A stretch of DNA of 64,000 nucleotides, taken from the IMG/VR virus record IMGVR_UViG_3300022562_001240, one strand, 5' to 3'. The translations under genes were made by a program, and so were the position numbers. This document shows, piece after piece, positions 568 through 16,448 of this stretch. The stretch comes from a virus. The first letter of the stretch is position 1. Every line of letters starts with the position of its first letter. The notes below the pieces were generated by a model, which worked only from the letters and a program-made list of their open reading frames with translations, did no database searches and was not told where the DNA came from.

Positions 568-640
568 GCAGAATGATGGGACTCGAACCCACAACTCACC
601 GGTTCTTTTCCGGCTGCTCTACCATTGAGCTACATTCGGG
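568..640 (-). tRNA. tRNA-like, class I shape, anticodon AAG (Leu codon CUU), A at position 33
   Basis: 73 nt; anticodon arm GCCGG-AAAAGAA-CCGGT; T-loop TTCGAGT; acceptor has 1 mismatch; short variable loop. Confidence 0.45.
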
Positions 641-708
641 TGTCCGGTTTATTCGCCCCAGACAGGGCAGGTTTCAAGATTGATTATCTTGTTGCAGATT
701 TACATCTG

Positions 709-779
709 CGGTGCCAGCAGGAATCGAACCTGCATCTCCTAAATTCCAATTAGGTGCTCTCCCTTTGAGCGATGGCGGT
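709..779 (-). tRNA. tRNA-like, class I shape, anticodon GGA (Ser codon UCC), weak acceptor stem
   Basis: perfect anticodon arm CCTAA-TTGGAAT-TTAGG, D-arm GCTC/GAGC, T-arm GCAGG-TTCGATT-CCTGC; only 4/7 acceptor pairs. Confidence 0.35.
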
Positions 780-943
780 ACACACGCAACCTCACTACAA
801 CATTCCGTCCACTTCTCCCTCTGGCACTCGGCAAAGAGGCTTCGAAGAAAGGTTTGTTGCAATAAGCGTCCATGCGTCCCCAGATCCGTCCGCCTTGCTC
901 GGTTCTAGCTAGTCTACCGTCAAGCTACGGCTTCTCTGAGAAG

Positions 944-1018
944 TCAGGATGAGAGGATTTGAACCTCCGAACCTTCTGGTCCCGAACCAGACGCTCTACC
1001 AAGCTGAGCTACATCCTG
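944..1018 (-). tRNA. tRNA-Pro(CGG)
   Basis: cloverleaf on rc: acceptor CAGGATG/CATCCTG, anticodon loop TTCGGGA, T-loop TTCAAAT. Confidence 0.8.
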
Positions 1019-1023
1019 TTGAG

Positions 1024-1096
1024 TGGGCAATGAGGGATTCGAACCCCCGACTTCCTCCTTGTAAGGGAGGCACTCTAGCCGCTGAGTTAATCGCCC
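1024..1096 (-). tRNA. tRNA-Val(TAC)
   Basis: acceptor GGGCGAT/ATTGCCC, anticodon arm CCTCC-CTTACAA-GGAGG, T-loop TTCGAAT. Confidence 0.8.
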
Positions 1097-1097
1097 G

Positions 1098-1703
1098 TTA
1101 TGTTGGCTCTCCTGAACGAAGTCGTTGAAGCATCTCACGAAGTTCGCTCGTTTCGCCTTCTCGAATCATCTGCAATGGAACCTTCCCGTTGAACGCCGGA
1201 TTGGGTCTCTCCAAGAACTCGTCAATCGCAGACTCTTCTATCACTTCTCTCAAGGCGGCTCGAAAGTTCTCTACCGCCAAGTAGAATTTCTCGTCGTCCG
1301 TCAATTCACGGACATCTTCGTGCTTCCCATCATCTGATGTTTTCGTCACCCATGATGAGATGCCATCCTTCCCTAGTTTTTCTTTGTCTTCAACAGTCTT
1401 CCATCCAGTTGCAATGGAGTAAAGCTCCTGTTGATCTCGTCCTCGATTTCGTTTCTGCCACTCTCGCTCCATGTAGCAACAACCGATGCTCGATGTGCGA
1501 GAGAATCGAGCCGAGGTTTCTGGTTTGATCGTTCCGCAGCCATAACAAAAATTGGACTGCCGACCGTCTCTTTCCTTCAACCACGTCCCACACTGATGAC
1601 ACACGACCATTTCGCAGCGTTCGCAGCGATCTGGGGCTTTCTGAACATTTTCGGCAAGTGCCAAACAAAAAGCACATTCGTAGTCTTCAGTGTATTCGGC
1701 CAT
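1098..1703 (-). CDS. Cys-rich zinc-ribbon protein (hypothetical)
   Basis: ORF 1098..1772 trimmed to Met MAEYTEDYE because the upstream part is a tRNA read as protein; CxxC pairs CAFC, CERC, CHQCG, CYGCG. Confidence 0.5.
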   Translation of the reverse strand: MAEYTEDYECAFCLALAENVQKAPDRCERCEMVVCHQCGTWLKERDGRQSNFCYGCGTIKPETSARFSRTSSIGCCYMEREWQKRNRGRDQQELYSIATGWKTVEDKEKLGKDGISSWVTKTSDDGKHEDVRELTDDEKFYLAVENFRAALREVIEESAIDEFLERPNPAFNGKVPLQMIREGETSELREMLQRLRSGEPT

Positions 1704-1715
1704 GTCTTCTCCAAG

Positions 1716-1786
1716 AGCTTCCACGAGGAATCGAACCCCGGTTTCCTCGGTACGAACGAGGCGTAATCCCACTATACCACGGAAGC
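1716..1786 (-). tRNA. tRNA-Thr(CGT)
   Basis: acceptor GCTTCCG/TGGAAGC, anticodon arm CCTCG-TTCGTAC-CGAGG, T-loop TTCGATT. Confidence 0.75.
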
Positions 1787-1839
1787 AAGAATTTGTCTCC
1801 CCTGCTTAGATAAGTTATACCCCACATGGAGAAGAACTT

Positions 1840-2013
1840 ATGTCAGAGAACAACTTTCGCATCTTTTGCGTTGCGGCAATCATCGCTATGTTTGCCCTCA
1901 TCGGTTGGGCCATTTATCACCATATTGAACACGACTACCACGAGCAGGACATTCGCATCCAGTCACCGTGGTTTGAATACAAAGGCGACGGCCATTACAA
2001 GGTCCGACCTTAA
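1840..2013 (+). CDS. small membrane protein (57 aa, hypothetical)
   Basis: ATG preceded by GGAGAAG; MSENNFRIFCVAAIIAMFALIGWAIYHH... fits between two tRNAs; not in the supplied ORF track in this frame. Confidence 0.4.
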   Translation: MSENNFRIFCVAAIIAMFALIGWAIYHHIEHDYHEQDIRIQSPWFEYKGDGHYKVRP

Positions 2014-2014
2014 G

Positions 2015-2087
2015 AGCTACCGAGAGGAATCGAACCCCCAACCTGAGCTTTACAAAAGCCCTGCTCTGCCAGTTGAGCTACGGTAGC
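2015..2087 (-). tRNA. tRNA-Thr(TGT)
   Basis: acceptor GCTACCG/CGGTAGC, anticodon arm GGGCT-TTTGTAA-AGCTC, T-loop TTCGATT. Confidence 0.8.
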
Positions 2088-2093
2088 ACTGAG

Positions 2094-2164
2094 TTGGGTA
2101 AGGTGGAATCGAACCACCGTTTTCCGCTTATCAGACGGATGCCTTTCCATTAGACGACTACCCA
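2094..2164 (-). tRNA. tRNA-Ile(GAT)
   Basis: acceptor TGGGTAG/TTACCCA, anticodon loop CTGATAA, T-arm GGTGG-TTCGATT-CCACC. Confidence 0.7.
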
Positions 2165-2168
2165 ATGT

Positions 2169-2876
2169 TTACATCTTAATCGCTGCGGGATTCCTTGCTT
2201 TGATAGTCATGCCGAGTTCATCGAAGATGTAGTTGAAAATCGGCTGCCATATCGCATAGCGAGGATACCTCATATCCAAAACAATAGAATGGCTATTGTC
2301 AGGATATCTCTCTGCATGTGCCTCAAAGACTTGAATTCGGAACGTCATCAAGCTGGGAATATCATCCCATTTGTTGTCGGCCCAAACTGCGTCTTGAAAC
2401 ACGCACAAAACAAAGTCACGATTCTGTCGGAGGTCAGCAATGACATCATGCAAATACATCACCTCTTCCAACTTCGTCGTGGGAGTATTGGTTCTGAGAA
2501 TCAACGGGCGGTGAGCCGTTTTGATCCTGTTGACCAACTTGGACATATCGTGCGTTTTGATGAACTTTCTGTAACATTCATCTTTGTCGCTACCAACACG
2601 CCAATGGTGCGCCGAAATGATGCCGCTGATTTTGTCTTTGACAAACCATTTGGTGCCACTTCTGCACGTCCCATAAAAATCCAAGTCATCTAGCGAACCA
2701 AAAAACCCTTCGAACTCTTTGCTCAATGCGGTTGCGAGTTCTCCCAGATTGTTCGTCGCCAGATCGTCAAGCTCATCCCGGCGTTTCATGATCCGCAAGT
2801 CGCTCAAAACCTTTGCGACAAAGCAGTTCTTGCCGAGTCCAATGATATCTCGTTCCATACGGTTTTCCTCCAGCAA
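2169..2876 (-). CDS. hypothetical protein (235 aa)
   Basis: long ORF between tRNA blocks; no confident domain call. Confidence 0.5.
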   Translation of the reverse strand: MLEENRMERDIIGLGKNCFVAKVLSDLRIMKRRDELDDLATNNLGELATALSKEFEGFFGSLDDLDFYGTCRSGTKWFVKDKISGIISAHHWRVGSDKDECYRKFIKTHDMSKLVNRIKTAHRPLILRTNTPTTKLEEVMYLHDVIADLRQNRDFVLCVFQDAVWADNKWDDIPSLMTFRIQVFEAHAERYPDNSHSIVLDMRYPRYAIWQPIFNYIFDELGMTIKARNPAAIKM

Positions 2877-2900
2877 TATCTAGGAGAAATAACCGTCAAG

Positions 2901-2974
2901 TGGGCGTGGGAAGATTCGAACTTCCGACTTCCATCTTATCAGGATGGCACTCTAAACCGCTGAGTTACACGCCC
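2901..2974 (-). tRNA. tRNA-Ile(GAT) second copy
   Basis: acceptor GGGCGTG/CACGCCC, anticodon arm CCATC-CTGATAA-GATGG, T-loop TTCGAAT. Confidence 0.8.
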
Positions 2975-3094
2975 ATGGTGGCCGACTAGGGATTCGAACC
3001 CAAGCAGACGACTTCGCTAACTATGAACCCGCCGAAGCAGGGTTTTGTCTCCCGTCATCTGGTATTTCCGAAAACTCGGCCTCTAAATACCCTC

Positions 3095-3334
3095 ATGAGA
3101 TTCAAAGACTGGCTACTTTCTGAAAACGGCAATCGCACAGGAGCAAAGATCGGACTCTACGCTCCTATCGATGACGCTCTCGGCCAATATCCGCCACTCT
3201 ATGGCACTCCATCTGCCGCCGATCTGATCACTTACATCGACATTCACTACGGCAAGAAAGGCGTGCCCGGCAAGAACGGAATCATCCGTTATCCTGAACC
3301 TCACCACGCTGTCGGCCAAGGCCGAAAACGCTAG
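3095..3334 (+). CDS. hypothetical small protein
   Basis: ORF 3023..3334 trimmed to internal Met MRFKDW to avoid a tRNA-like element. Confidence 0.3.
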   Translation: MRFKDWLLSENGNRTGAKIGLYAPIDDALGQYPPLYGTPSAADLITYIDIHYGKKGVPGKNGIIRYPEPHHAVGQGRKR

Positions 3335-3407
3335 TGGAATGGATGGGACTTGAACCCACAACCCTCGGCTTGCAAAGCCGATGCTCTCCCAGTTGAGCTA
3401 CCACCCC
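3335..3407 (-). tRNA. tRNA-Ala(TGC)
   Basis: acceptor GGGGTGG/CCATTCC with G-U pairs, anticodon arm TCGGC-TTTGCAA-GCCGA, T-loop TTCAAGT. Confidence 0.8.
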
Positions 3408-3641
3408 TTATCTGTAATCGTCTCGATCATCATATTCCAGATGATCTTGATCCCAACGAGCCTTTCGGCTCTGGTACTGGCGATTGGCTTCCAGCCGTGC
3501 CGCCAGATCAACGCTCCGTTTCCGTGACTGTTCCAACTTTTGTACTAGGTCGGCGACACGGGCCTCCAACCATTGGACATACTCCTCGGTGTAGATGTTC
3601 GTGTCTTCAATCGTCTTCGGACCACGGAACTCTTCATCCAT
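3408..3641 (-). CDS. hypothetical protein (77 aa)
   Basis: charged helical small ORF. Confidence 0.35.
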   Translation of the reverse strand: MDEEFRGPKTIEDTNIYTEEYVQWLEARVADLVQKLEQSRKRSVDLAARLEANRQYQSRKARWDQDHLEYDDRDDYR

Positions 3642-3656
3642 CTGAGCTTCCTTGTG

Positions 3657-4034
3657 TCAGATCCCTGCGCCACTATCCAGCAGTGCTTCTTCGTGACGCT
3701 TTCGCTGTTCCTCACACCACGCATCGTACACGGCCAGTTGTCGGTAGAACTCCTCGATCTGAGGAAGGAACTCCCGGTCCAGTTCGTGATTCAAAAACGG
3801 ACGAGTCAGAAACAACTTGCAGTTCTCACATTCCATCCCCGCACCGGCAGAATGGAAAGCACACTCGGCATACTGCTCAATGTCTATCTCATCAACCTTG
3901 AGCGTCTGGTGCCAATGTTTTGCTTCCAAAACTTTTGGGCAGTGTCGCAAGAACTCCTTTGGAAATTCTGGCGGCTTCATGCCGTTCTCCTTATCAGCGT
4001 TTCCATCGTTTCCACAGACGTTCGAACAATTCAA
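3657..4034 (-). CDS. hypothetical protein (125 aa)
   Basis: ORF with several Cys/His; no domain call. Confidence 0.4.
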   Translation of the reverse strand: MNCSNVCGNDGNADKENGMKPPEFPKEFLRHCPKVLEAKHWHQTLKVDEIDIEQYAECAFHSAGAGMECENCKLFLTRPFLNHELDREFLPQIEEFYRQLAVYDAWCEEQRKRHEEALLDSGAGI

Positions 4035-4106
4035 CCAAGCTCACGATCAGTATGATCCGACTGAACTGTAGCGAAAGTTCGCTCACCTTTGGTAGTTTCT
4101 TCATAG

Positions 4107-4179
4107 TGGACCGGAGGGGAATCGAACCCCACACACCGATGTTGCGAGCATCAGTCGCCCCCTTGGAACATGCCAGCCC
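4107..4179 (-). tRNA. tRNA-Ala(CGC)
   Basis: acceptor GGGCTGG/CCGGTCC, anticodon arm TGATG-CTCGCAA-CATCG, T-loop TTCGATT. Confidence 0.7.
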
Positions 4180-4210
4180 ATAGTATGACTCATTCGATGA
4201 ATGAATCAAG

Positions 4211-4283
4211 TGGAGGATAACGGACTTGAACCGATGACCTACTGGCTGCCAGCCAGTCGCTCTCCCAACTGAGCTAATCCCCC
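4211..4283 (-). tRNA. tRNA-Ala(GGC)
   Basis: acceptor GGGGGAT/ATCCTCC, anticodon arm ACTGG-CTGGCAG-CCAGT, T-loop TTCAAGT. Confidence 0.8.
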
Positions 4284-4477
4284 GTCAATCAAAAAAGAAC
4301 AACAACACATAAAGAACCAATGCGATGATGAAAGCGATTCCCGCAATCACACATCCTGTCAGTGCCGCTGTCCAAAGTGCTGCTTCCATGCAACCCTCAA
4401 AGTTTGTGAAAATGTTCGGTCGGGACTCGGACCCGATCCTTTGATCTCTCAATGTGCTTTAGAACACCCCCGAACAG

Positions 4478-4549
4478 TGGTCGCTATTGGATTCGAACCA
4501 ATGACTTCCGCCATGTGAAGACGGCACTCTACCGCTGAGTTAAGCAACC
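4478..4549 (-). tRNA. tRNA-Val(CAC)
   Basis: acceptor GGTTGCT/AGCGACC, anticodon arm CCGTC-TTCACAT-GGCGG, T-loop TTCGAAT. Confidence 0.8.
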
Positions 4550-4557
4550 AGCATAAG

Positions 4558-4629
4558 TGAGCGAGGCAGGATTCGAACCTGCGACTTCCACCATGTCAGG
4601 GTGGCGATCTGCCGCTGATCTACACGCTC
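4558..4629 (-). tRNA. tRNA-Val(GAC)
   Basis: acceptor GAGCGTG/CTCGCTC, anticodon arm CCACC-CTGACAT-GGTGG, T-loop TTCGAAT. Confidence 0.8.
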
Positions 4630-4633
4630 ATAG

Positions 4634-4704
4634 TACCCAGTAGAGGAATCGAACCCCTTCTAACACGTTCGAAGCGTGTCGTGCATCCATCACACTCACC
4701 GGGC
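4634..4704 (-). tRNA. tRNA-Arg(TCG)
   Basis: 71 nt; acceptor GCCCGGT/ACTGGGT (G-U pairs), anticodon arm ACACG-CTTCGAA-CGTGT, T-loop TTCGATT. Confidence 0.65.
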
Positions 4705-4741
4705 ATGTAGTGCCCCATGGTAGGGACACCACTTCACTTCC

Positions 4742-5287
4742 TTATTCCTCTTCAGGTTTTTCAGGAAGAGGGTCGTGTACGATTTCTCGTACAGCTTTCT
4801 CCATTTGTATGAGTTTGGCTCGGGTGATGGCTCTGACTAGGAAACCATCTCTCCCAACATCCAATGACAACTCATTTCTGATCGTTGTTTTGGTTCCATT
4901 CGCTTTGATGTGAGTGTGAAGCACATATCCTTTGATTTCGCTGTGTTCACTCACCAGTTCGGTGATGATCAAGACCTCGCCCTTCTTTCGAGTGACGACT
5001 TCTGTGAACTGCATCTCTTCGCCATTGCGAACAACGACTCGATGCCACACCAGAACCAGTTGCCATCCGCCTTTCGGCGTGAAGACAACACCAATTTCAC
5101 GAACCTCCCTTTTCACCAACTCAGCACCGCTTCGTTCGACAATCCTTTTGTCGCTGCTCGGCAGTGCGAGCATTGAACTCACCAAGTCAAACGGTTTGTT
5201 CAATTCGTATTCGTTACTCACCTCAACAGCTTGGGCAACTGAAGTGAGCAGAAACAGGCTGGCAATCGCCAGCAGTAATGCTCTCAT
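4742..5287 (-). CDS. secreted protein (signal peptide), hypothetical
   Basis: N-terminus MRALLLAIASLFLLTSVAQA is signal-peptide-like. Confidence 0.55.
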   Translation of the reverse strand: MRALLLAIASLFLLTSVAQAVEVSNEYELNKPFDLVSSMLALPSSDKRIVERSGAELVKREVREIGVVFTPKGGWQLVLVWHRVVVRNGEEMQFTEVVTRKKGEVLIITELVSEHSEIKGYVLHTHIKANGTKTTIRNELSLDVGRDGFLVRAITRAKLIQMEKAVREIVHDPLPEKPEEE

Positions 5288-5313
5288 GTGAGACTCCTGT
5301 GGTTAGGTCTAGC

Positions 5314-5814
5314 CTATATATCCACAGAGTCTCTCAGTATGCCCAGTTCTACCAACTCGTCTTCTGTTAGGAGATCGAAACCCGTCCAATTCCGCCGTTT
5401 CAATGTCACTATCCAATGACATCGAACACAACGAACTTCACATTTCTCGATCTCATCCAGTATTGCCTCCCAAGACCAACCATTCCAAACCATCACCGAG
5501 ACATCATTTTCCTTATCTCTTAGATGGTCGAATTCCAAAAGAGCCGGATTTGTCTCTCCGCAATCCACACAGGGATGCTCTCTCAGATATTCAAATAGAA
5601 GAACGAGATTCTGTTGGCGAACCACCTTGTTTCTCTTCTTCGCTTTGTCTTTGTAGTAATCTTGGTTGGCCTCGTAGTGTTTCTTGAGATATTTCTTGTG
5701 GCACTTTTTGCATTTCGACTGATACTTCTGTCTGCCGTCTGCATAAGAACCTTTCTTCGAAAACTCAGAAACAGGTTTGTCGAGGTTGCAACCGGTGCAA
5801 AACCTTACTTCCAT
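5314..5814 (-). CDS. HNH homing-type endonuclease
   Basis: N-terminal Cys cluster plus C-terminal motif EFDHL...N...CVRCH. Confidence 0.7.
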   Translation of the reverse strand: MEVRFCTGCNLDKPVSEFSKKGSYADGRQKYQSKCKKCHKKYLKKHYEANQDYYKDKAKKRNKVVRQQNLVLLFEYLREHPCVDCGETNPALLEFDHLRDKENDVSVMVWNGWSWEAILDEIEKCEVRCVRCHWIVTLKRRNWTGFDLLTEDELVELGILRDSVDI

Positions 5815-5851
5815 GTAACCTGCCTTCGATCACAACATCATGTTGTGATAG

Positions 5852-5923
5852 TACACCCGGAGGGATTCGAACCCCCGACCGACTGCTTAGAAGGCAGTTG
5901 CTCTTCCACTGAGCTACGAGTGC
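5852..5923 (-). tRNA. tRNA-Arg(TCT)
   Basis: acceptor GCACTCG/CGGGTGT, anticodon arm ACTGC-CTTCTAA-GCAGT, T-loop TTCGAAT. Confidence 0.75.
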
Positions 5924-5930
5924 ATGTCAG

Positions 5931-6009
5931 AGGCCGCAGGCGGATTCGAACCACTTGACGCCAGATTTGCAGTCTGGTGCTCCACCACGAAGCTTTCGTC
6001 TCCACGGCC
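5931..6009 (-). tRNA. tRNA-Cys(GCA)-like, 79 nt with an extended D region
   Basis: acceptor GGCCGTG/TGCGGCC, anticodon arm CCAGA-CTGCAAA-TCTGG, T-loop TTCGAAT; residues 8-26 span 25 nt and include a perfect hairpin ACGAA-AGC-TTCGT. Confidence 0.5.
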
Positions 6010-6083
6010 AGTGAGTTGTTGGCGTCATGATTTACGACCTTTGCTCTTATCACTGGGACGGTCAAGCAGGGACCAACAACAAG

Positions 6084-6156
6084 CGAGCCATACGGGAGTC
6101 GAACCCGCAACCTCTTCCGTGACAGGGAAGTGAGCTACCATCTGCTCCTATGGCCC
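6084..6156 (-). tRNA. tRNA-Asp(GTC)
   Basis: acceptor GGGCCAT/ATGGCTC, anticodon arm CTTCC-CTGTCAC-GGAAG, T-loop TTCGACT. Confidence 0.8.
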
Positions 6157-6263
6157 TTAAAAATCAACCGGTTTACTATCGAACGTCCCAGCTTAAGTGT
6201 ACAATTCCACTGGGCACCTTCAACAAGGTTAGGCTTGTACTTTGCCACACGAGCCGGTTGAAG

Positions 6264-6337
6264 TGGAAGCGGTGGGAATCGAACCCACATGGTCCCGGTT
6301 AAGAGCCGGGTGCAATTACCTTGTCTGCCACACTTCC
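6264..6337 (-). tRNA. tRNA-Lys(CTT)
   Basis: acceptor GGAAGTG/CGCTTCC, anticodon arm CCCGG-CTCTTAA-CCGGG, T-loop TTCGATT. Confidence 0.75.
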
Positions 6338-6528
6338 ATTTCCTACACCACCTTCAGCTTTCTTTCCTTGGGCTTCTGTGGTTCGTGCGTCTGGCGGATC
6401 GTATTGATCCCTACATCCTTGTATGCCAGATGCGTCGGTTCGCCCTTCTGGGCACGTTTCGCTGCTGCTTCATTCAAAGCGATAATCGTTTCCAAACACC
6501 ACATTCTCAAGTTCCTTCTCTTCTGAGG

Positions 6529-6819
6529 TTAGTCATCCCAGACAGCTTCGAGGGACCATCCTATTCGAAACCATACAACTCTGGGCTTTTCCCGGTAGTC
6601 GAGGACAGCGACCTTGTAGATTCGCTGGCCGTCGTTTTTGTACCAGAAAGGTCCGTATGAAAAAACTGGTTCTTCGATACTGACCACTTGGCAACGATTG
6701 TCTTCACACCATTCTTTGATCTCTTCACGATTGGATTGCCCTGTCCACGTCGCCAAGGCGATGCAGAAGGCCAACACCAGCAAAAATCCGATTGCTGTAA
6801 GTATCCAATTCTTTTCCAT
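6529..6819 (-). CDS. small membrane-anchored protein (hypothetical)
   Basis: ORF 6529..6900 trimmed to Met MEKNWILTAIGFLLVLAF because the upstream codons overlap a tRNA. Confidence 0.4.
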   Translation of the reverse strand: MEKNWILTAIGFLLVLAFCIALATWTGQSNREEIKEWCEDNRCQVVSIEEPVFSYGPFWYKNDGQRIYKVAVLDYREKPRVVWFRIGWSLEAVWDD

Positions 6820-6841
6820 GATGAGATCCTTCACATCAGAG

Positions 6842-6915
6842 CGAGGATGACGGGACTCGAACCCGCAACCACCGGCTCGACAGGCCGGTACTCTAACCAA
6901 TTGAGCTACATCCCC
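6842..6915 (-). tRNA. tRNA-Asp(GTC) second copy (G at position 37)
   Basis: acceptor GGGGATG/CATCCTC, anticodon arm CCGGC-CTGTCGA-GCCGG, T-loop TTCGAGT. Confidence 0.7.
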
Positions 6916-6950
6916 TTTTATATCATCCCAACCTTTCAGTCAAGATGAAG

Positions 6951-7021
6951 CTGCCCAACTTGGATTCGAACCAAGGCTAACTGAGTCAGAGTCAGTCGTG
7001 CTACCGCTACACTATCGGGCA
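6951..7021 (-). tRNA. tRNA-Gln(CTG)
   Basis: acceptor TGCCCGA/TTGGGCA, anticodon arm ACTGA-CTCTGAC-TCAGT, T-loop TTCGAAT. Confidence 0.75.
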
Positions 7022-7042
7022 ATGTGTCGTGTATTCTTTAAG

Positions 7043-7113
7043 CTGCCCGGCAAGGGTTCGAACCTCGGCCAACTGATTCAAAGTCAGTTATGCTACCACT
7101 ACACCACCGGGCA
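7043..7113 (-). tRNA. tRNA-Gln(TTG)
   Basis: acceptor TGCCCGG/CCGGGCA, anticodon arm ACTGA-CTTTGAA-TCAGT, T-loop TTCGAAC. Confidence 0.75.
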
Positions 7114-7129
7114 AAAAAATTGGGAGGAG

Positions 7130-7202
7130 TGCCCCCTGTAGGATTCGAACCCACACCTATCTGATTAAAAGTCAGAAATGCTCCCATTAACACCAAGGAG
7201 GC
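7130..7202 (-). tRNA. tRNA-Lys(TTT)
   Basis: acceptor GCCTCCT/AGGGGGC, anticodon arm TCTGA-CTTTTAA-TCAGA, T-loop TTCGAAT. Confidence 0.75.
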
Positions 7203-7206
7203 AGAG

Positions 7207-7279
7207 TGGGACCGCTCGGAATCGAACCGAGAACCTACCGGTTAAAAGCCGGTTGCTCTGCCTGTTGAGCTACGATCCC
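7207..7279 (-). tRNA. tRNA-Lys(TTT) second copy
   Basis: acceptor GGGATCG/CGGTCCC, anticodon arm ACCGG-CTTTTAA-CCGGT, T-loop TTCGATT. Confidence 0.75.
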
Positions 7280-7351
7280 ATGTTTATGAGATCGTGCGTT
7301 TCAATCGTTGAGTGTTCATGGAAAAATCTCCTTCTATGGTTTGTGTATGAG

Positions 7352-7424
7352 AGACTCGGGTGGGATTTGAACCCACGACATGCTGGTTAACAGCCAGCCG
7401 CTCTGGCCTCTGAGCTACCGAGTC
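7352..7424 (-). tRNA. tRNA-Asn(GTT)
   Basis: acceptor GACTCGG/CCGAGTC, anticodon arm GCTGG-CTGTTAA-CCAGC, T-loop TTCAAAT. Confidence 0.8.
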
Positions 7425-7431
7425 AGCCAAG

Positions 7432-7503
7432 CTCCGGGAACAGGTCTCGAACCTATAATAACTGGTTAACAGCCAGTCGTGATACCAATTTCACCATCCC
7501 GGA
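7432..7503 (-). tRNA. tRNA-Asn(GTT) second copy
   Basis: acceptor TCCGGGA/TCCCGGA, anticodon arm ACTGG-CTGTTAA-CCAGT, T-loop TTCGAGA. Confidence 0.7.
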
Positions 7504-7510
7504 ATGTAAG

Positions 7511-7581
7511 AGCGGGTGAAGGGAATCGAACCCTCATAGCCAGCTTGGAAGGCTGGAGCTTTGCCATTAAGCTACACCCGC
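7511..7581 (-). tRNA. tRNA-Gly(TCC)
   Basis: acceptor GCGGGTG/CACCCGC, anticodon arm CCAGC-CTTCCAA-GCTGG, T-loop TTCGATT. Confidence 0.8.
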
Positions 7582-7590
7582 ATGTTTAAG

Positions 7591-7662
7591 AGCCGGTAGA
7601 GGGAATCGAACCCCCGACAAGTTGTTTACAAAACAACCACTCTGCCACTGAGTTACACCGGC
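7591..7662 (-). tRNA. tRNA-Thr(TGT) second copy
   Basis: acceptor GCCGGTG/TACCGGC, anticodon arm GTTGT-TTTGTAA-ACAAC, T-loop TTCGATT. Confidence 0.75.
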
Positions 7663-7762
7663 GTTCTGTTGAAGGCTGCGTTACGGCCACGGCTAGGTCC
7701 ACACCACTGAGGGCTCGCCAAGTTCGTCCTCCGACTTTGGTTCATGCCGCTGGTTCAACAAG

Positions 7763-7835
7763 TATCCCCGAGAAGATTCGAACTTCTTCTTCCACCTTCG
7801 CAGGGTGACGTGCTTATCCATCACACTCCGGGGAT
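7763..7835 (-). tRNA. tRNA-Arg(GCG)
   Basis: acceptor ATCCCCG/CGGGGAT perfect, anticodon arm TCACC-CTGCGAA-GGTGG, T-loop TTCGAAT. Confidence 0.7.
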
Positions 7836-7924
7836 ATTACTGCGGATCGTGAATCGGATACTATCCGAAACGACTAAGGCTAATTCCGCAAAGCCCCAAC
7901 ACTTTAGTTCTTGTGTTGTTTCAG

Positions 7925-7995
7925 CAGGAGCGGGAGGACTCGAACCCCCACCAACGGTTTTGGAGACCGACATGCTACCATTACACCACGCACCT
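7925..7995 (-). tRNA. tRNA-Trp(CCA)
   Basis: anticodon loop CTCCAAA, T-arm GGGGG-TTCGAGT-CCTCC, acceptor 6/7 pairs. Confidence 0.65.
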
Positions 7996-8000
7996 GTGTT

Positions 8001-8027
8001 CAACATGTCCACGACGTGGACATGTTG
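8001..8027. repeat. perfect 13-bp-arm inverted repeat caacatgtccacg/cgtggacatgttg
   Basis: read directly; immediately downstream of tRNA-Trp on the minus strand. Confidence 0.8.
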
Positions 8028-8030
8028 GTG

Positions 8031-8150
8031 AAACGTGTCGAAGTTTTTGCATTTTTTCGACACGTTTCTGGAACGTGTCGAAGTTTTTGCATTTTTTCGA
8101 CACGTTTCTGGAACGTGTCGCAATTTTTGCATTTTTGCGACACGTTTTTG
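8031..8150. repeat. three tandem ~40-bp units, each an internal 9-bp-stem palindrome (cgtgtcgaa-N13-ttcgacacg)
   Basis: units at ~8033-8072, 8073-8112, 8113-8150; the third unit has compensatory cgcaa/ttgcg changes. Confidence 0.85.
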
Positions 8151-8177
8151 TGACATGTCGTTATCGGCGACATGTCA
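8151..8177. repeat. inverted repeat tgacatgtcg-N7-cgacatgtca
   Basis: read directly. Confidence 0.75.
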
Positions 8178-8180
8178 AAG

Positions 8181-8311
8181 TCGGGGAGGTAGGATTCGAA
8201 CCTACAATCTTCAGTTCCAAAATACTGATGCTTGTTTGTAAGTTTCGCATGTGGGGGACGCCGAGGCGTCCAAGTTTGAGAAACTGGTGTTAACCATTTA
8301 GCTTCTCCCCG
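8181..8311 (-). tRNA. interrupted tRNA (anticodon region ATTTTGGA, TTG-like, 8-nt loop) carrying a ~60-nt conserved insert
   Basis: 5' half CGGGGAG-AA-GCTA...; 3' half TCAGT-loop-ACTGA, GTAGG-TTCGAAT-CCTAC, CTCCCCG; insert holds hairpin GGACGC-C-GCGTCC; paralogous to the 31142..31269 gene. Confidence 0.55.
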
Positions 8312-8312
8312 A

Positions 8313-8385
8313 GTAGCGACGGCTGGACTCGAACCAGCACTAACCGGCTTATGAAACCAGTGCTTTACCTTTAAGCTACGTCGCC
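8313..8385 (-). tRNA. tRNA-Met(CAT) elongator type (or Ile-lysidine type)
   Basis: acceptor GGCGACG/CGTCGCT, anticodon arm CTGGT-TTCATAA-GCCGG, T-loop TTCGAGT. Confidence 0.7.
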
Positions 8386-8388
8386 ATA

Positions 8389-8679
8389 TCAAACGATGAA
8401 CTTCCCTTGCAGGATGAACATCTCAAGCTGGTCGATTTCCTTCTTCGCTTTGACCAGATCTTTCGTTCGCAATCCGTAAGGACAGTCTTCGACGAAGTAC
8501 GCCATTGCTGCTGCCTTTGCATCGTGAACCGAATACTGATCGAGCGGATCGACATACCTTTTCGACAAGACAACCATCTGAACTGACCAGATTGCCCGAC
8601 TCCGAATTTGCTCTTCGGTGATCGGTTCTTTAGGTTCAGGCGGCTTCCGTCTAAAGAGACGAACCAGCCAGCCAAACAT
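8389..8679 (-). CDS. hypothetical protein (96 aa)
   Basis: ORF directly downstream of the tRNA block. Confidence 0.4.
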   Translation of the reverse strand: MFGWLVRLFRRKPPEPKEPITEEQIRSRAIWSVQMVVLSKRYVDPLDQYSVHDAKAAAMAYFVEDCPYGLRTKDLVKAKKEIDQLEMFILQGKFIV

Positions 8680-8729
8680 TTTGCCTCCGAGGACTTGCTA
8701 TACACATAGCTACTCCTCATAAGGCAAGG

Positions 8730-8803
8730 TCGGGAAGACAGGATTCGAACCTGCGACCCCCTGCTCCCAAAGCAGGTGCTCTACCAAGCTGAGCTACTTC
8801 CCG
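8730..8803 (-). tRNA. tRNA-Pro(TGG)
   Basis: acceptor CGGGAAG/CTTCCCG, anticodon arm CCTGC-TTTGGGA-GCAGG, T-loop TTCGAAT. Confidence 0.8.
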
Positions 8804-8909
8804 ATTGTAACCATCCAAGTCGATGCAGCAGGTGTCCCCTGCGCCCATGGCAGGGGACAAACAAATCCGAAGTTTTGTTTGTAAGCTCCATCAGTAGGAG
8901 ATGGTCAAG

Positions 8910-8981
8910 TCCTCCCGGCTGGAATCGAACCAGCGTGTACGGTTCCACAAACCGCCGCTCTCGCCACTGAGCTACAGAAGG
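8910..8981 (-). tRNA. tRNA with GTG anticodon (His-like) lacking the G-1:C73 pair
   Basis: acceptor CCTTCTG/CGGGAGG, anticodon arm GCGGT-TTGTGGA-ACCGT, T-loop TTCGATT; A at position 73. Confidence 0.55.
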
Positions 8982-8989
8982 ATAAAAAG

Positions 8990-9113
8990 TGGAGGTGGTG
9001 GGATTCGAACCCACATTGCTTTCGCCAAAAGAAAGTTTTTTACCGTTTGTATGTTCCGCAGTTGGGGGATGGCGAACCATCCAAGTTTGAGAAACAGTGT
9101 TTTTTACACCCCC
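8990..9113 (-). tRNA. interrupted tRNA (anticodon TTG-like), no recognisable D-arm, carrying the conserved insert
   Basis: acceptor GGGGGTG/CACCTCC; anticodon arm CTTTC-TTTTGGC-GAAAG; T-arm GTGGG-TTCGAAT-CCCAC; insert hairpin GGATGG-TTCG-CCATCC; TAAAAAAC direct repeat flanks the insert. Confidence 0.5.
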
Positions 9114-9161
9114 GGTTGTTGAATGACACGAACCATAAAGAATGGTTCGCAGCATTCGAGT

Positions 9162-9234
9162 CAGGATGAAAGGATTTGAACCTTCGACCTTCTGGCCCCC
9201 AGCCAGACGCTCTCCCAAACTGAGCTACATCCTG
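9162..9234 (-). tRNA. tRNA-Pro(GGG)
   Basis: acceptor CAGGATG/CATCCTG, anticodon arm TCTGG-CTGGGGG-CCAGA, T-loop TTCAAAT. Confidence 0.8.
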
Positions 9235-9421
9235 TTGTGATTGTGCTGGTGCATACAGCCAAGCGGGCTTCAAGGTTAGATCAGGGCAATGTTACATGCC
9301 ACACCCTCTGGACCACACAATCATTGAACGATTTTCTCGCCCACCAGATATCACACCGAGCCGAATAGGCGTTGCTCATGACGGCTTGTTGGCCGTAACA
9401 GATTTCTCTGTTGTGTGAAAG

Positions 9422-9566
9422 AGCCCCCGACTGGATTCGAACCAGTAACCTCTCGCTTAGAAGGCGAAATTGTTTGTAAGCTTCACATGTAGGGGACAAG
9501 CCGAAGCCCGTCCAAGTTTGTCAAGCGATTTAACAGTAGTGCTCTAGCCAATTGAGCTACAGGGGC
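9422..9566 (-). tRNA. tRNA-Arg(TCT) interrupted between positions 26 and 27 by a ~72-nt conserved structured insert
   Basis: 5' half GCCCCTG-TA-GCTC-AATTGGCTA-GAGC-A; 3' half TTCGC-CTTCTAA-GCGAG, ACTGG-TTCGAAT-CCAGT, CGGGGGC; acceptor pairs 7/7 across the insert; insert hairpin GGACGGGC-UUCG-GCUUGUCC. Confidence 0.65.
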
Positions 9567-9602
9567 CTGTTGTTTTGCCCGTTTTCAAACGGAGCCGAAA
9601 AG

Positions 9603-9742
9603 AGCCCTCGACCGGATTCGAACCGATACTACCCCCTTGGAATGGGATTGTTTGTAAGCTTCACATGTAGGGGACAAGCCGAAGCCCGTCCAAGTTTGCC
9701 AAGCGAGTAAACGTAAGGTGTGCTACCATTGCACTACGAGGG
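9603..9742 (-). tRNA. interrupted tRNA (anticodon TCC Gly or CCA Trp, ambiguous) with the same insert between positions 26 and 27
   Basis: 5' half GCCCTCG-TA-GTGC-AATGGTA-GCAC-A; 3' half ATCCC-ATTCCAA-GGGGG, ATCGG-TTCGAAT-CCGGT, CGAGGGC; insert nearly identical to the 9422..9566 copy. Confidence 0.6.
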
Positions 9743-9766
9743 CAACTCGTAAGTCCCCGAAGGGAC

Positions 9767-9838
9767 AGTGACCCGTGAGAGAATCGAACTCTCGTTCTCT
9801 GTCTGAAAAACAGTAATCCTACCACTAGACGAACGGGC
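9767..9838 (-). tRNA. tRNA-Glu(TTC)
   Basis: acceptor GGCCCGT/ACGGGTC, anticodon loop TTTTCAG, T-arm GAGAG-TTCGATT-CTCTC. Confidence 0.65.
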
Positions 9839-9910
9839 CGTAAAACTGAGATCGCAGAGTTTCAGTCAACGATCTCGGGACTCCTTGTACACATGGTACA
9901 TGAGCTAATT

Positions 9911-9924
9911 GCCCCGCAAGGGGC
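9911..9924. terminator. GC hairpin gcccc-gcaa-ggggc just 3' of tRNA-His (minus-strand direction)
   Basis: read directly; no clear U-run. Confidence 0.3.
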
Positions 9925-9927
9925 GAG

Positions 9928-10001
9928 GGTGCCAGACCAGAATCGAACAGGCTCTTCCTCGGTCACAGCGAGGCGTGCATAACCATTACACTTCCGGCAC
10001 C
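9928..10001 (-). tRNA. tRNA-His(GTG) with encoded G-1:C73
   Basis: G(-1)+GTGCCGG/CTGGCAC+C73, anticodon arm CCTCG-CTGTGAC-CGAGG, T-loop TTCGATT. Confidence 0.75.
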
Positions 10002-10008
10002 ATATAAG

Positions 10009-10083
10009 GGTGTGCGAAGGGAATTGAACCCTCACCTTCAGCTTCACAAACTGACGTGCAGAAACCACTACACTACGCACACC
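10009..10083 (-). tRNA. tRNA-His(GTG) second copy with G-1:C73
   Basis: G(-1)+GTGTGCG/CGCACAC+C73, anticodon arm TCAGT-TTGTGAA-GCTGA, T-loop TTCAATT. Confidence 0.75.
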
Positions 10084-10089
10084 ATCTCG

Positions 10090-10152
10090 TAGTTTCACTG
10101 AAACTGGCAGTTTCACTACGGAGTGAAACACCATGTTTCAGTGAAACATTGG
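10090..10152. promoter_or_regulatory. three adjacent palindromes built on GTTTCA-N-TGAAAC (candidate operator array)
   Basis: agtttcaCTGaaact, gtttcact-acgg-agtgaaac, atgtttcaGtgaaacat; a partial 4th copy at ~10416. Confidence 0.45.
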
Positions 10153-10154
10153 AG

Positions 10155-10225
10155 TGACCCCACGGAGATTCGAACTCCGGTCTTCTGCCTGAGAAGCAGA
10201 TGTCCTCCCACTAGACGATGGGGCC
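10155..10225 (-). tRNA. tRNA-Glu(CTC)
   Basis: acceptor GGCCCCA/TGGGGTC, anticodon arm TCTGC-TTCTCAG-GCAGA, T-loop TTCGAAT. Confidence 0.75.
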
Positions 10226-10345
10226 AGTTGGCGATTCAATTGTCAAGGATCAAATTTCGGAGTGCATCCCACCCAAGTTCCTCACTCCCCGGCATTAGGC
10301 ACATAGTCCCTCACCGGATACCAATCCAAATTTTGGACTGGCAAG

Positions 10346-10416
10346 AGCGACCGAAGGGAATCGAACCCTCGTCACCTGCATGGCAAGCAGGCGCATTACC
10401 ACTATGCTACGGTCGC
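10346..10416 (-). tRNA. tRNA-Gly(GCC)
   Basis: acceptor GCGACCG/CGGTCGC, anticodon arm CCTGC-TTGCCAT-GCAGG, T-loop TTCGATT. Confidence 0.8.
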
Positions 10417-10423
10417 ATTTCAG

Positions 10424-10494
10424 TGACCCCACGGAGAGTCGAACTCCGGTTCTCAGATCGAAAATCTGATGTCCTAACCACTAGACGATGGGGC
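10424..10494 (-). tRNA. tRNA-Glu(TTC) second copy
   Basis: acceptor GGCCCCA/TGGGGTC, anticodon arm TCAGA-TTTTCGA-TCTGA, T-loop TTCGACT. Confidence 0.75.
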
Positions 10495-10554
10495 CGTCTT
10501 TTCTTTCTCTCTTTCGTTTGGCCTTTCCTAGCGGGTGTTAGTCCACAAAAAAAA

Positions 10555-10594
10555 GGCTCGCTCAGGCGAATTTCTCCACCTGAGCGAGCCTTTT
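10555..10594. terminator. bidirectional intrinsic terminator (12-bp stem ggctcgctcagg/cctgagcgagcc flanked by A8 and T4)
   Basis: read directly; sits at the upstream (high-coordinate) boundary of the first tRNA array. Confidence 0.65.
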
Positions 10595-10882
10595 ATGGAT
10601 TTGAGCGGCTCTTGAACTCAGGTGGCTTTGGGCCGTCCTGAGTTCTTGTGTGAACCAATCAGAACGGCGTGAGGGTTGGCATACCCTCGGCGGCTGCTGG
10701 ATTATCATGTCCTTGACGGACTACGATAATGGCGCAGCACGGGCATGTGGTCTGTTCGACCTTATGCCATCTACGTTCTGTGGTTCGTTTGCTCAACATT
10801 GTTTCTTGTCCTTAGTCCTTTGAGGTTCGAGGCTTTCGCAAATCCCCCCGGATCGCAAATGCCAAAAACCCTCATTCGGAAG

Positions 10883-10955
10883 TGGCAGGTGAAGGATTCG
10901 AACCTCCGTCCTCCGGGTTATGAGCCCGACGAGCTAACCACTGCTCCAACCTGCG
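10883..10955 (-). tRNA. initiator-type tRNA-fMet(CAT)
   Basis: anticodon stem ends with three G-C pairs (TCGGG/CCCGG), loop CTCATAA, 1:72 mismatch (C.C), T-loop TTCGAAT. Confidence 0.7.
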
Positions 10956-14790: not shown

Positions 14791-15486
14791 TTAGAAACGG
14801 TCTGGCGCAGGTCGCATCCGCTGCGTCAGTATGTCAACATAAACTTGCTCGAAGTTCACCTTGTCTTGCTCATAGGCGTAGTAGCAGTTGCACATCGCAC
14901 TTGCTATCGCCAGATTGGTGAAGAGCAATTGAGGGTTTGCGTGAGCTTCCTGCTCACATCCCTGTCGCTCCACATCCGTCAGATCGCCGGGGTTTTTGTC
15001 TTCCGGCTGTGCGATCTTGGGATGCAAAGCTGTAGGTGGCTTCGTCACGTCCTTCCCATCCTTGCGGATATAGACGATGACGTTGCCATCGATGTAATCG
15101 TTTCCCCCACTGATCAGAGTCACATTGTCCAATTCTTCACAGCGGTCGGAAACCAATTTGCGTGTGGCATGGTTGTCCACACACAAAAACACGACATCTT
15201 CGTTTCTGATGGAAGTGATAATGTTGTCTTCGGTCAGGTACTCGCCCTTTGCTCGCAGGTGGATCTTTGGGAATTCCCCTTTGAGTGTATTGACGGTGTG
15301 TTGGGCCTTGTTCTCGCATTCTGTGAATCGTTGTCGTTCTCGGTTGCGTTCCTCAAAACGATCACCATCGAAAACAGTCATCTCAACAAAATCGTCGGAA
15401 TGGCTCAGGTATCGGCACAACGGTTCAAGAAGATGTCCCCCAATACCGCCAGCACCGATCACTTTGATCTTTCGTGTCTTTTTCAT
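14791..15486 (-). CDS. E1-like ThiF/MoeB-family adenylyltransferase
   Basis: Rossmann motif KIKVIGAGGIGGHLLEPL, Arg-rich nucleotide-binding region, conserved Cys residues. Confidence 0.75.
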   Translation of the reverse strand: MKKTRKIKVIGAGGIGGHLLEPLCRYLSHSDDFVEMTVFDGDRFEERNRERQRFTECENKAQHTVNTLKGEFPKIHLRAKGEYLTEDNIITSIRNEDVVFLCVDNHATRKLVSDRCEELDNVTLISGGNDYIDGNVIVYIRKDGKDVTKPPTALHPKIAQPEDKNPGDLTDVERQGCEQEAHANPQLLFTNLAIASAMCNCYYAYEQDKVNFEQVYVDILTQRMRPAPDRF

Positions 15487-16448
15487 TCTGTGTGTCTCCT
15501 GAAGAGCTTCTGATCAAATTCGGCCAATCCAACATTTGTAATGACGGTGATTTTGCCCTGTCGCACACTGACGACTTCAAAAGGCCCATCACCACAAACC
15601 GTGCGGAAAGACACAAGTTTCAAGTCGCCTGCCCATGCCACTTGGTCGCCAGCTTGTAAGCCACGCTCTTCTTTCTTGGACGACCATCCCCAAAAAGAAG
15701 GAGTTCCGCTTCCAGTGACTTGCGACATCCATTCATCCAAGTCTGCGGCCCACTCGGCTTTTTCTTCTTCGGAAACACCAATGATGGCGTATTCCGAATC
15801 TCCCTTTCTCAACTCGATTCCTTCCAGAACATCTGCTGGATCAACTTGATTGCGTATGCCATTCACAACCACAGATGCACTGATCGTGAAGACCTCTTTG
15901 TTGTTGTGTCCGAAAGTGCAATGAAGTCCGTCGAAATCTTCTTCGTCATGAACGTCAGTACCAGAATGAAACGCCCCGAAGTCACAGTGAGAATGAATCG
16001 TCCCTACACGCAAATAGTCTTCCATGCCCTCGACGTGACTCAACCCACAACGCTCATAGTTGACGCCGCCGTGAGTTACTCTTTGCTGAGGAATGTGGAT
16101 CTTGAAAGACTCATCCGATTTTCGGTAGTAGAGCGTGGTGGCTGCCTCAGCGTGATGCTTCTCGACAACACGTCGAAAGAACTCTTTGATTCGCCAGACG
16201 AGTCGAAGCGGAAGCTTGGGCAGTGAACACTCCACATACACATCAGCTTCCAGATCTTCAAGAACACTGATGTTCTCAACAGGAACAAAGGCTTTGACGA
16301 TGCCTGTATCCTTATGGAGCCACATACCGTTCCCGGCGACGAGGTAGTAAGTGCCCTGCTTGGGCAACTCCATGCCGGGTTCATAGATGTGAATTGGAAA
16401 GCCGGGATTGAAAGCGTCTGTCATCTGAACTTCCTTGTTCAATCTCAA
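15483..16448 (-). CDS. JAMM/MPN+ metallopeptidase
   Basis: motif GTIHSHCDFGAFHSGTD fits HxHx7Sx2D with an upstream Glu. Confidence 0.75.
   Translation of the reverse strand: MRLNKEVQMTDAFNPGFPIHIYEPGMELPKQGTYYLVAGNGMWLHKDTGIVKAFVPVENISVLEDLEADVYVECSLPKLPLRLVWRIKEFFRRVVEKHHAEAATTLYYRKSDESFKIHIPQQRVTHGGVNYERCGLSHVEGMEDYLRVGTIHSHCDFGAFHSGTDVHDEEDFDGLHCTFGHNNKEVFTISASVVVNGIRNQVDPADVLEGIELRKGDSEYAIIGVSEEEKAEWAADLDEWMSQVTGSGTPSFWGWSSKKEERGLQAGDQVAWAGDLKLVSFRTVCGDGPFEVVSVRQGKITVITNVGLAEFDQKLFRRHTE

Follow-up and report, generated by a model that had tools for sequence, protein, structure and literature searches.

A palindromic array in a viral tRNA island

The stretch of DNA analyzed here, referred to below as the window, comprises 64 kb of a viral contig of ~239 kb (238,888 bp), IMG/VR record IMGVR_UViG_3300022562_001240, and statements below about missing Fic or SoFic genes apply to these 64 kb. 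Our subject is an array of palindromes at 8001-8177, inside a cluster of tRNA genes, that resembles the operator DNA found beside genes for the protein adenylyltransferase SoFic. The minus strand carries nearly all genes of the window, including the 40 tRNA genes that ARAGORN predicts at 420-10955; three further ARAGORN tRNA genes lie beyond 10955, and the Rfam model RF00005 adds one at 8181-8311 that is absent from the ARAGORN set. The array fills the whole spacer at 7996-8180, with tRNA-Trp on one side and an unusual tRNA gene on the other, and 29 of the ARAGORN tRNA genes (420-7995) lie downstream of it in the direction of transcription, tRNA-Trp being the first.

Recognizable genes in the window encode a NAD-dependent ligase, DnaJ, a PhoH-like protein, an amidoligase, a phosphoesterase, and a ThiF-like E1 protein, and another encodes a protein with a major-vault-protein shoulder domain. 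We infer that the window, from which structural genes are absent, is an auxiliary region of a huge phage. No close relative was found among cultured phages, and a megablast search of 7000-9500 against phages returned tRNA matches only.

One half-site in alternating orientation

An earlier interpretation, made from the letters and a list of open reading frames (the sequence-only reading), described a palindrome with 13-bp arms at 8001-8027, three tandem units of ~40 bp, and a further palindrome at 8151-8177, and all three are present. The first palindrome is perfect (arms at 8001-8013 and 8015-8027), as is the last, which has 10-nt arms (8151-8160 and 8168-8177) and a 7-nt loop. The units between them occupy 8032-8147, where Tandem Repeats Finder reports a period of 40, 2.9 copies, 96% matches, and a score of 211. 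The stems that flank GTTTTTGCATTTT, thought to be 9 bp long, measure 11 to 12 bp. Units 1 and 2 are identical, which suggests a recent expansion. Unit 3 differs by A to C at 8121 and T to G at 8137, which pair with each other, and by G to A at 8123, which gains one extra pair. The compensatory changes once noted in unit 3 are real at 8121/8137 but amount to this single paired substitution, which is explained equally by a two-fold symmetry kept for a protein site or by template switching within the palindrome.

Either neighbor pairs equally well with each arm, and TTCGACACGTT-tctgg-AACGTGTCGAA is also a perfect palindrome; the array is therefore an alternating series of one half-site rather than three discrete hairpins. 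This half-site, TGTCG/CGACA (more fully TCGACAYGT), occurs ten times in alternating orientation at 8001-8177, and the gaps between copies follow the symmetric order 7-13-17-13-17-13-17-13-7. The first five copies read TGTCc(8006)-7-gGACA(8018)-13-TGTCG(8036)-17-CGACA(8058)-13-TGTCG(8076) and, 17 nt on, the other five read CGACA(8098)-13-TGTCG(8116)-17-CGACA(8138)-13-TGTCG(8156)-7-CGACA(8168), so that eight pentamers are exact and two have one mismatch. Described otherwise, four core palindromes of the form TCGACAYGT-N7-ACRTGTCGA follow one another at an exact period of 40 bp and are capped by two "gap-7" pairs (Table 1). The sequence-only reading recognized a real array, but its 13-nt-loop register hides this conserved core, which is centered on tctgg.

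The half-sites are strongly concentrated in the array. Of 20 ACRTGTC/GACAYGT copies in the window, 12 fall in 8003-8176, and eight of the nine matches to ACRTGTCG lie within 8033-8175. Together with the RNA folding z-score of -12.6, this clustering argues that the array did not arise by chance.

Table 1. Coordinates of the array elements and of the adjoining tRNA genes
Feature	Coordinates	Strand	Remarks
tRNA-Trp (cca)	7924-7995	-	ARAGORN; 5' end 6 nt from array
Outer gap-7 pair, one-mismatch half-sites TGTCc (8006-8010), 7 nt, gGACA (8018-8022)	8003-8025		In palindrome 8001-8027; HMM match 8002-8066, E 6e-12
Core site 1, tGGACATGT-N7-ACGTGTCGa	8017-8041		Left arm has one mismatch to TCGACAYGT; gap 13 (8022 to 8036) read directly
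AT-rich spacer 1, 17 nt, AAGTTTTTGCATTTTTT	8041-8057		TTTT-n-TTTT type, as in SoFic-linked loci
Core site 2, TCGACACGT-N7-ACGTGTCGA	8057-8081		Perfect consensus match
AT-rich spacer 2, 17 nt	8081-8097		Identical to spacer 1
Core site 3, TCGACACGT-N7-ACGTGTCGc	8097-8121		Outer flank A to C at 8121
AT-rich spacer 3, 17 nt, CAATTTTTGCATTTTTG	8121-8137		Both end bases are the paired substitutions
Core site 4, gCGACACGT-N7-ACATGTCGt	8137-8161		
Outer gap-7 pair, TGTCG (8156-8160), 7 nt, CGACA (8168-8172)	8156-8172		In palindrome 8151-8177; HMM match 8177-8112, E 1.7e-10
tRNA gene with 59-nt D-loop insertion	8181-8311	-	Rfam RF00005, 47.3 bits; 3' end 3 nt from array

Hairpins of this kind could also work in RNA, by terminating transcription, by directing RNase processing, or by giving protection between tRNA precursors. 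The minus-strand fold (-88.5 kcal/mol, z = -12.6), the paired substitution in unit 3, and two terminator-like hairpins (8055-8083 and 8098-8120) would agree with such a function. However, these two hairpins are found on the plus strand only, whereas on the transcribed (minus) strand, which carries the tRNA genes, the hairpins precede A-rich rather than U-rich sequence and none has the U-tract of an intrinsic terminator. Stacked terminators, as proposed by the sequence-only reading, are thus unsupported, and its processing sites found no specific support. Moreover, two equally good partners for each arm specify no single fold, and Rfam returned nothing above threshold, with sub-threshold matches to microRNA precursors that reflect the long hairpins. 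Structure alone would also leave unexplained why sequence and 7/13/17 spacing are identical to those of DNA sites beside SoFic genes across phyla, described below. We regard an RNA element as highly improbable and as the weakest of the rival explanations. The remaining proposal of that reading, operator sites for a dimeric DNA-binding protein, is the one favored by the evidence, and these sites can be assigned to the SoFic-type family of Fic proteins with a winged helix-turn-helix domain.

The core motif and its association with SoFic genes

Scans of viral contigs defined the motif. A search for the exact palindrome found ten single sites, on contigs without protein homology to the window, and a degenerate pattern of three half-sites matched 70 IMG/VR contigs, compared with 11 loci for a composition-matched scrambled control palindrome. 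Among the IMG/VR matches, 50 of the 75 inverted pairs of the form GACAYGT...ACRTGTC are separated by 7 nt. The positions that the search had left free show preferences for T at -2 (84%), A at -3 (57%), and Y at +7 (94%) that are absent from pairs with other spacings. The 7-nt spacing and these preferences define the core as (A)TCGACAYGT-N7-ACRTGTCGA(T), which corresponds to the tctgg palindrome of the window and not to the palindrome with the 13-nt loop.

We then imposed only the bare core, TCGACAYGT-N7-ACRTGTCGA, in a scan of one genome per prokaryotic species, which yielded at least 120 loci. Those listed (n = 120) come from Proteobacteria, Bacteroidota, Cyanobacteria, Verrucomicrobiota, Planctomycetota, Acidobacteriota, Actinomycetota, and Chloroflexota, as well as from two methanogen assemblies. 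When the open reading frames (ORFs) up to 1.5 kb from the site were clustered, a single family dominated, a Fic family that is present at 55 of the loci listed and always lies within 190 bp of the site; a homologue of this family occurs within the 8-kb locus in 68 of the 120. No other neighbor family recurs across the loci listed. The dominant family combines Fic_N and Fic domains with a SoFic-like_C winged helix and matches both NCBIfam NF046030, "protein adenylyltransferase SoFic," and the PADLOC defense model for SoFic (E values of 1e-114 to 1e-122).

The position and layout of the sites are also characteristic. Typically, the center of the site is ~36 bp ahead of the start of the Fic gene or ~37 bp beyond the stop. 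The composite operator lies 30 to 230 bp upstream of the SoFic start, and its last half-site contains the start codon in some loci; at 23 sites, the motif follows the SoFic stop by 27 to 107 bp and precedes the next gene. Half-sites that the scan did not impose pile up at TGTCG-7-CGACA (91 cases) and TGTCG-17-CGACA (97 cases), beside the 170 cases of CGACA-13-TGTCG, a gap that the search imposed. From the sharp gaps of 7 and 17 next to the core, the usual bacterial operator can be written as TGTCG-7-CGACA-13-TGTCG-17-CGACA. Where the core is repeated, as in four loci including L101, the copies lie 40 bp apart. The 17-nt spacers at SoFic-linked loci are AT rich, with two T or A tracts (e.g., CTATTTTGCATTTTCAG in L196 and ATATTTTAGCCTTTTTT in L101), and their orientation relative to the SoFic gene is not consistent (33 A rich, 18 T rich, and 13 neutral).

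Further insight comes from more distant SoFic homologues, in the range of 40 to 45% identity. Upstream of one that is 43% identical (L214, an IMG/VR contig, 5855-5936), the geometry is the same and the sequence is another, TAAAGGTAT-N7-ATACCTTTA, and upstream of a second (L216, also IMG/VR, 5871-5997) there are arrays of TTGACA/TGTCAA. The operator therefore varies with the SoFic homologue, as expected if the winged helix of SoFic reads it, and this covariation suggests that operators are subfamily specific. Some viral contigs encode SoFic relatives themselves, and one of these (L213) has the cognate operator upstream.

A different protein might nevertheless occupy the sites, either a small antitoxin encoded downstream or an unrelated phage protein. 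The 23 sites downstream of a SoFic stop would suit such a binder, as would the motif-bearing phage contigs without Fic genes, and E. coli SoFic has a downstream antitoxin, AS1 (PMC12249575). Yet SoFic is the sole neighbor family that recurs across the loci listed, the operator sequence shifts with the SoFic subfamily, and a Shewanella oneidensis fragment with these half-sites is bound by purified SoFic alone. We consider it very improbable that the sites belong to a protein other than SoFic.

Agreement between the array and the SoFic operator

To compare the array with these operators, we used a profile hidden Markov model (HMM) built from 61 composite operators at 43 SoFic-linked loci, with the window sequence excluded. 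The model finds six matches in the window at 8000-8178 (E values of 3e-12 to 6e-7) and a single one elsewhere (16522-16551, E of 0.016), which lies inside an ORF and has noncanonical spacing. A slightly larger segment there, 16509-16552, contains GACATGT, ATCGACA, and ACATGTC, probably by chance. The search of the 64 kb for further motif copies, suggested along with the sequence-only reading, returned only this weak match and isolated 7-mers outside 8000-8178. The HMM also matches the DNA upstream of SO_4266 from S. oneidensis over the full 7-13-17 length (E of 3e-11).

The individual properties of the SoFic operator recur in the array. Its half-sites form (A)TCGACAYGT(Y) inverted pairs, its only gaps are 7, 13, and 17, with 13 in the core and 7 and 17 in the flanks, and AAGTTTTTGCATTTTTT is an AT-rich, two-tract spacer of 17 nt. 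With eight exact half-sites in a canonical chain, the array equals the longest chain at 138 loci from genomes and metagenomes (median of 3 to 4) and has twice the maximum (four) of 74 viral loci. We conclude that the ten alternating half-sites at 8001-8177 very probably constitute, at the level of DNA, an array of the SoFic operator type. A SoFic gene within ~250 bp, by its start or stop, is absent: tblastn and HMM searches found no Fic or SoFic-C homologue in the 64 kb. The array is an orphan within the available 64 kb.

DNA binding by SoFic has been shown in vitro for the S. oneidensis protein, of which the dimer, and not a monomeric mutant, specifically recognizes the 100 bp that precede its start codon, with the exact site left undefined (bioRxiv 10.64898/2026.07.09.737422). 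The 300-bp sequence in the supplement of that study contains ATCGACATG, AACATGTCGAT, AAACATGT-N7-ACATGTCGAT, TGTCGATTGAATCGACAT, and TATGTCGAT. This promoter (SO_4266/mloA) shares with the array the half-site ATCGACATG/ACATGTCGAT and the 7-13-17 layout. It differs in that its SoFic gene follows directly and its composite operator is single, one arm being degenerate, whereas the array has four cores, lies between phage tRNA genes, and is without a SoFic gene in the 64 kb.

Orphan sites in viral contigs

Orphan operators are not confined to the window. IMG/VR contigs without a Fic gene contain 41 distinct orphan sites that retain the base preferences of the family, and the motif-bearing viral loci encode no Fic or SoFic-C homologue. 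These contigs have no proteins in common with the window, and no single neighbor family recurs among them. One group of related podovirus-like contigs, five from IMG/VR and one from a metagenome-assembled genome, provides six loci with common synteny of the capsid gene and the genes downstream of it. In at least four of the six, the full 7-13-17 operator occupies an equivalent position between the major head protein gene and its downstream neighbor, directly ahead of the latter, and the spacers diverge; there is no Fic gene in these loci. Of the viral motif sites, 29% lay outside long open frames, versus 14% of random positions (p = 0.007), in a test too crude and lenient to be informative.

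The pattern for a tandem double site has no match in IMG/VR, and it yielded 18 metagenome contigs with double cores spaced by 40 bp, at least 13 of which adjoin SoFic genes; the contig of the window is not among the 18. BLAST gave no match to the array in E. coli genomes or plasmids, because its arms are short and the low-complexity filter was active, and a sequence-based search of the literature returned cloning primers only.

The surroundings of some sites include tRNA sequences, although a general test for adjacency between the motif and tRNA genes found few such loci. In five IMG/VR contigs (L004, L007, L011, L031, and L052), the operator stands directly beside a fragment that resembles a tRNA 3' end (...GGTTCGAATCCTGCCCGATCCA), in an attP-like arrangement. 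The nearest analogue of the arrangement in the window occurs in two IMG/VR contigs (L048, at 8266-8512, and L049), in which tRNA-Met and tRNA-Ile are followed, 60 nt on, by a SoFic-type core.

Such loci bear on the idea that the array is an inert scar, a SoFic promoter-operator that was captured from a genomic island of the host, perhaps together with a tRNA gene, and expanded by slippage. In addition to the tRNA-Met and tRNA-Ile cases and the attP-like 3' ends, an operator lies beside tRNA-Leu in another locus (L083); units 1 and 2 are 100% identical, as after a recent slip, and there are no relatives at hand that show conservation. However, a decaying remnant fits poorly with ten half-sites and nine gaps that are all canonical, with a divergent unit 3 that has altered both partners symmetrically, and with an array that is among the longest known. 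Also, orphan sites are kept at syntenic positions in other phage groups. An inert scar is, on balance, decidedly unlikely.

Functions that the array might have

SoFic is a single-gene abortive-infection toxin that acts against phages, and its toxicity is controlled by dimerization and the C-terminal domain; in E. coli, a 47-residue antitoxin, AS1, is encoded downstream (PMC12249575). Published work gives EF-Tu as the target of AMPylation by SoFic. Binding of SoFic to this particular array, and every consequence of it considered here, is our extrapolation from sequence likeness.

One possible function would be that of a cis-element controlled by SoFic, whether from phage or host, such as a promoter-operator or a roadblock for the transcription unit from tRNA-Trp onwards. 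Bacterial operators 30 to 230 bp upstream of SoFic starts occupy the position of an autoregulated promoter, and the end of the array is 6 nt from the 5' end of tRNA-Trp. The spacers on the tRNA strand, AAAAAATGCAAAAAC, resemble coding-strand spacers at several SoFic loci (e.g., ATTAAATGCAAAATAAT in L087), and SoFic relatives can also occur on viral contigs, among them L213 with its cognate operator. Nevertheless, no sigma-70-like promoter scored in 8000-8180 on either strand, the window has no gene for a Fic or SoFic-C homologue, and four tandem cores exceed the one or two at most SoFic promoters. A role in cis therefore seems rather unlikely to us.

We favor instead a reading in which the array is a DNA decoy that sequesters host SoFic, and we put the probability of this whole mechanism at roughly 0.4. 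SoFic-family dimers, most likely those of the host, would bind the array through their winged-helix domains, and each copy of the phage genome made during replication would offer four to five dimer sites that soak up SoFic. Four cores and two end pairs, multiplied over many genome copies, would give a large capacity. In DNA-held SoFic, the C-terminal domain might be kept from the AMPylase domain; alternatively, the autoregulation of SoFic and its antitoxin might be disturbed. EF-Tu would then escape AMPylation, and translation would continue. The recent duplication of a unit, the investment in translation represented by more than 40 tRNA genes, and an orphan antitoxin-domain ORF at 1098-1772 fit a decoy; this ORF, in the same tRNA cluster, would suit a neighborhood devoted to anti-defense. 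A broader proposition, which we consider doubtful, is that a tandemly expanded SoFic operator serves as a double-stranded DNA decoy of which the orphan sites of other phages are single-copy versions and that it would be the first anti-defense element to act as operator DNA instead of protein or RNA.

Several considerations weigh against a decoy. Published binding of SoFic is resolved to 100 bp only, and the identity of the array is based on sequence. The remaining ~175 kb of the contig may encode a phage SoFic, which would make the array an ordinary cis-operator. A cognate SoFic in the host is presumed, and phage megablast, IMG/VR, and metagenome scans found no phage relative in which to test conservation of the array. 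Titration of an autorepressor could equally raise SoFic expression, identical 40-bp units could arise by neutral slippage, and since bacterial loci also have the motif after SoFic, ahead of the following gene, a small partner protein could be what binds it. Finally, we know of no established precedent for a decoy made of DNA.

Related systems

Two Fic proteins offer mechanistic parallels. In CbFic2, a relative of SoFic, DNA binding induces dimerization and switches between AMPylation and deAMPylation (PMC10628234). CccR from Yersinia pseudotuberculosis, a Fic-helix-turn-helix toxin, represses its own promoter via an inverted repeat (PMC9755527); it too is dimeric, and its DNA-binding domain is C-terminal. 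Its operator differs, however, being a single chromosomal site with the half-site AGATAATCAT and a 26-bp spacer, and has no sequence similarity to the array.

Phages also carry nucleic acids that imitate parts of defense systems or occupy regulatory proteins, and these are the nearest functional analogues of a SoFic decoy. RNA anti-CRISPRs are repeat mimics, that is, phage copies of a regulatory element of host defense, and phage PhiTE reportedly neutralizes an abortive-infection toxin through an expanded number of pseudo-ToxI repeats. The likeness is that of a phage-borne tandem nucleic acid copy of a defense element; whereas both act as RNA on a toxin or on Cas proteins, the array is double-stranded operator DNA for which an effect is proposed only. 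Mycobacteriophage stoperators and multicopy operator titration illustrate action by protein occupancy of many copies of a repressor site on a phage genome, as opposed to control of one promoter. Unlike the array, which is clustered, is palindromic, and matches a host defense operator, stoperators are asymmetric, are dispersed in the genome, and are bound by the phage's own repressor.

Other classes of repeat were considered and rejected. The REP/BIME elements of enterobacteria are tandem, alternating extragenic palindromes with two alternating spacer lengths. They occur in hundreds of dispersed copies and are linked to RAYT transposases, whereas the array motif occurs once in 64 kb and is linked to SoFic genes across phyla; with no dispersed copies in the 64 kb, an element of the REP/BIME or MITE type does not apply. 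The array is not a CRISPR array, as its 17-nt "spacers" are identical or nearly so rather than unique. Nor does it resemble the iterons of a replication origin, as the cumulative GC skew falls monotonically through 8 kb and the flanks are tRNA genes.

Significance of the operator and of its orphan copies

Autoregulated operators of toxin and defense genes are already known as a kind, and binding of SoFic to its own promoter has recently been reported. In the literature searched, we found no earlier definition of the operator, of its 40-bp architecture and conservation, of orphan sites in phages, or of an array in a tRNA island. For SoFic, itself recognized only recently, the DNA site had been narrowed to 100 bp; it can now be given as TCGACAYGT-N7-ACRTGTCGA, with a repeat period of 40 bp and flanking half-sites at gaps of 7 and 17. 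This operator is conserved across Proteobacteria to Cyanobacteria and in two methanogen assemblies. Orphan operators occur in phages that lack Fic genes, and the window holds one of the longest arrays, in a tRNA island that also carries an orphan antitoxin domain. Should the array sequester or redirect SoFic, it would represent a new class of counter-defense made of DNA and would link DNA binding by SoFic to the control of its toxicity. Should it be only a scar, the definition of the operator would still stand and be useful for SoFic biology.

Other features of the window

The tRNA cluster contains additional unusual elements. The tRNA gene at 8181-8311, with its insertion in the D-loop, has an 8-nt anticodon loop (AUUUUGGA); ORF 8389-8679 found only itself in the protein database. 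The 224-aa product of ORF 1098-1772 (minus strand) contains the C-terminal toxin-binding domain of Xre/MbcA/ParS antitoxins (PF09722, E of 1.7e-8). No RES or ParT toxin gene adjoins this ORF, whose product is a candidate for an anti-toxin decoy of the phage. Between tRNA-His and tRNA-Glu, a second palindrome array fills the spacer (10092-10147), with GTTTCAcTGAAAC, GTTTCACTacggAGTGAAAC, and tGTTTCAgTGAAACa. Its half-site, GTTTCAC, equals that of parS but has a different central spacing, and this stretch may be another orphan protein-binding array.

Farther along the window, on the minus strand, the ThiF-like E1 gene (14791-15486) and a weak match to Prok-E2_D (17491-18846) flank two unannotated ORFs, and 14791-18846 could be a phage ubiquitin-like conjugation module. 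The protein with the major-vault-protein shoulder domain (E of 1.7e-18), encoded at 19510-22248 on the minus strand, has 912 aa and also contains a vault repeat, an uncommon combination in a phage protein. Beyond it, ARAGORN predicts a 100-nt "tRNA-Pro(ggg)" at 22419-22518 that is followed by two tandem-repeat arrays, one of 2.5 copies of 23 nt (22804-22861) and one of 3.5 copies of 27 nt (22872-22966).

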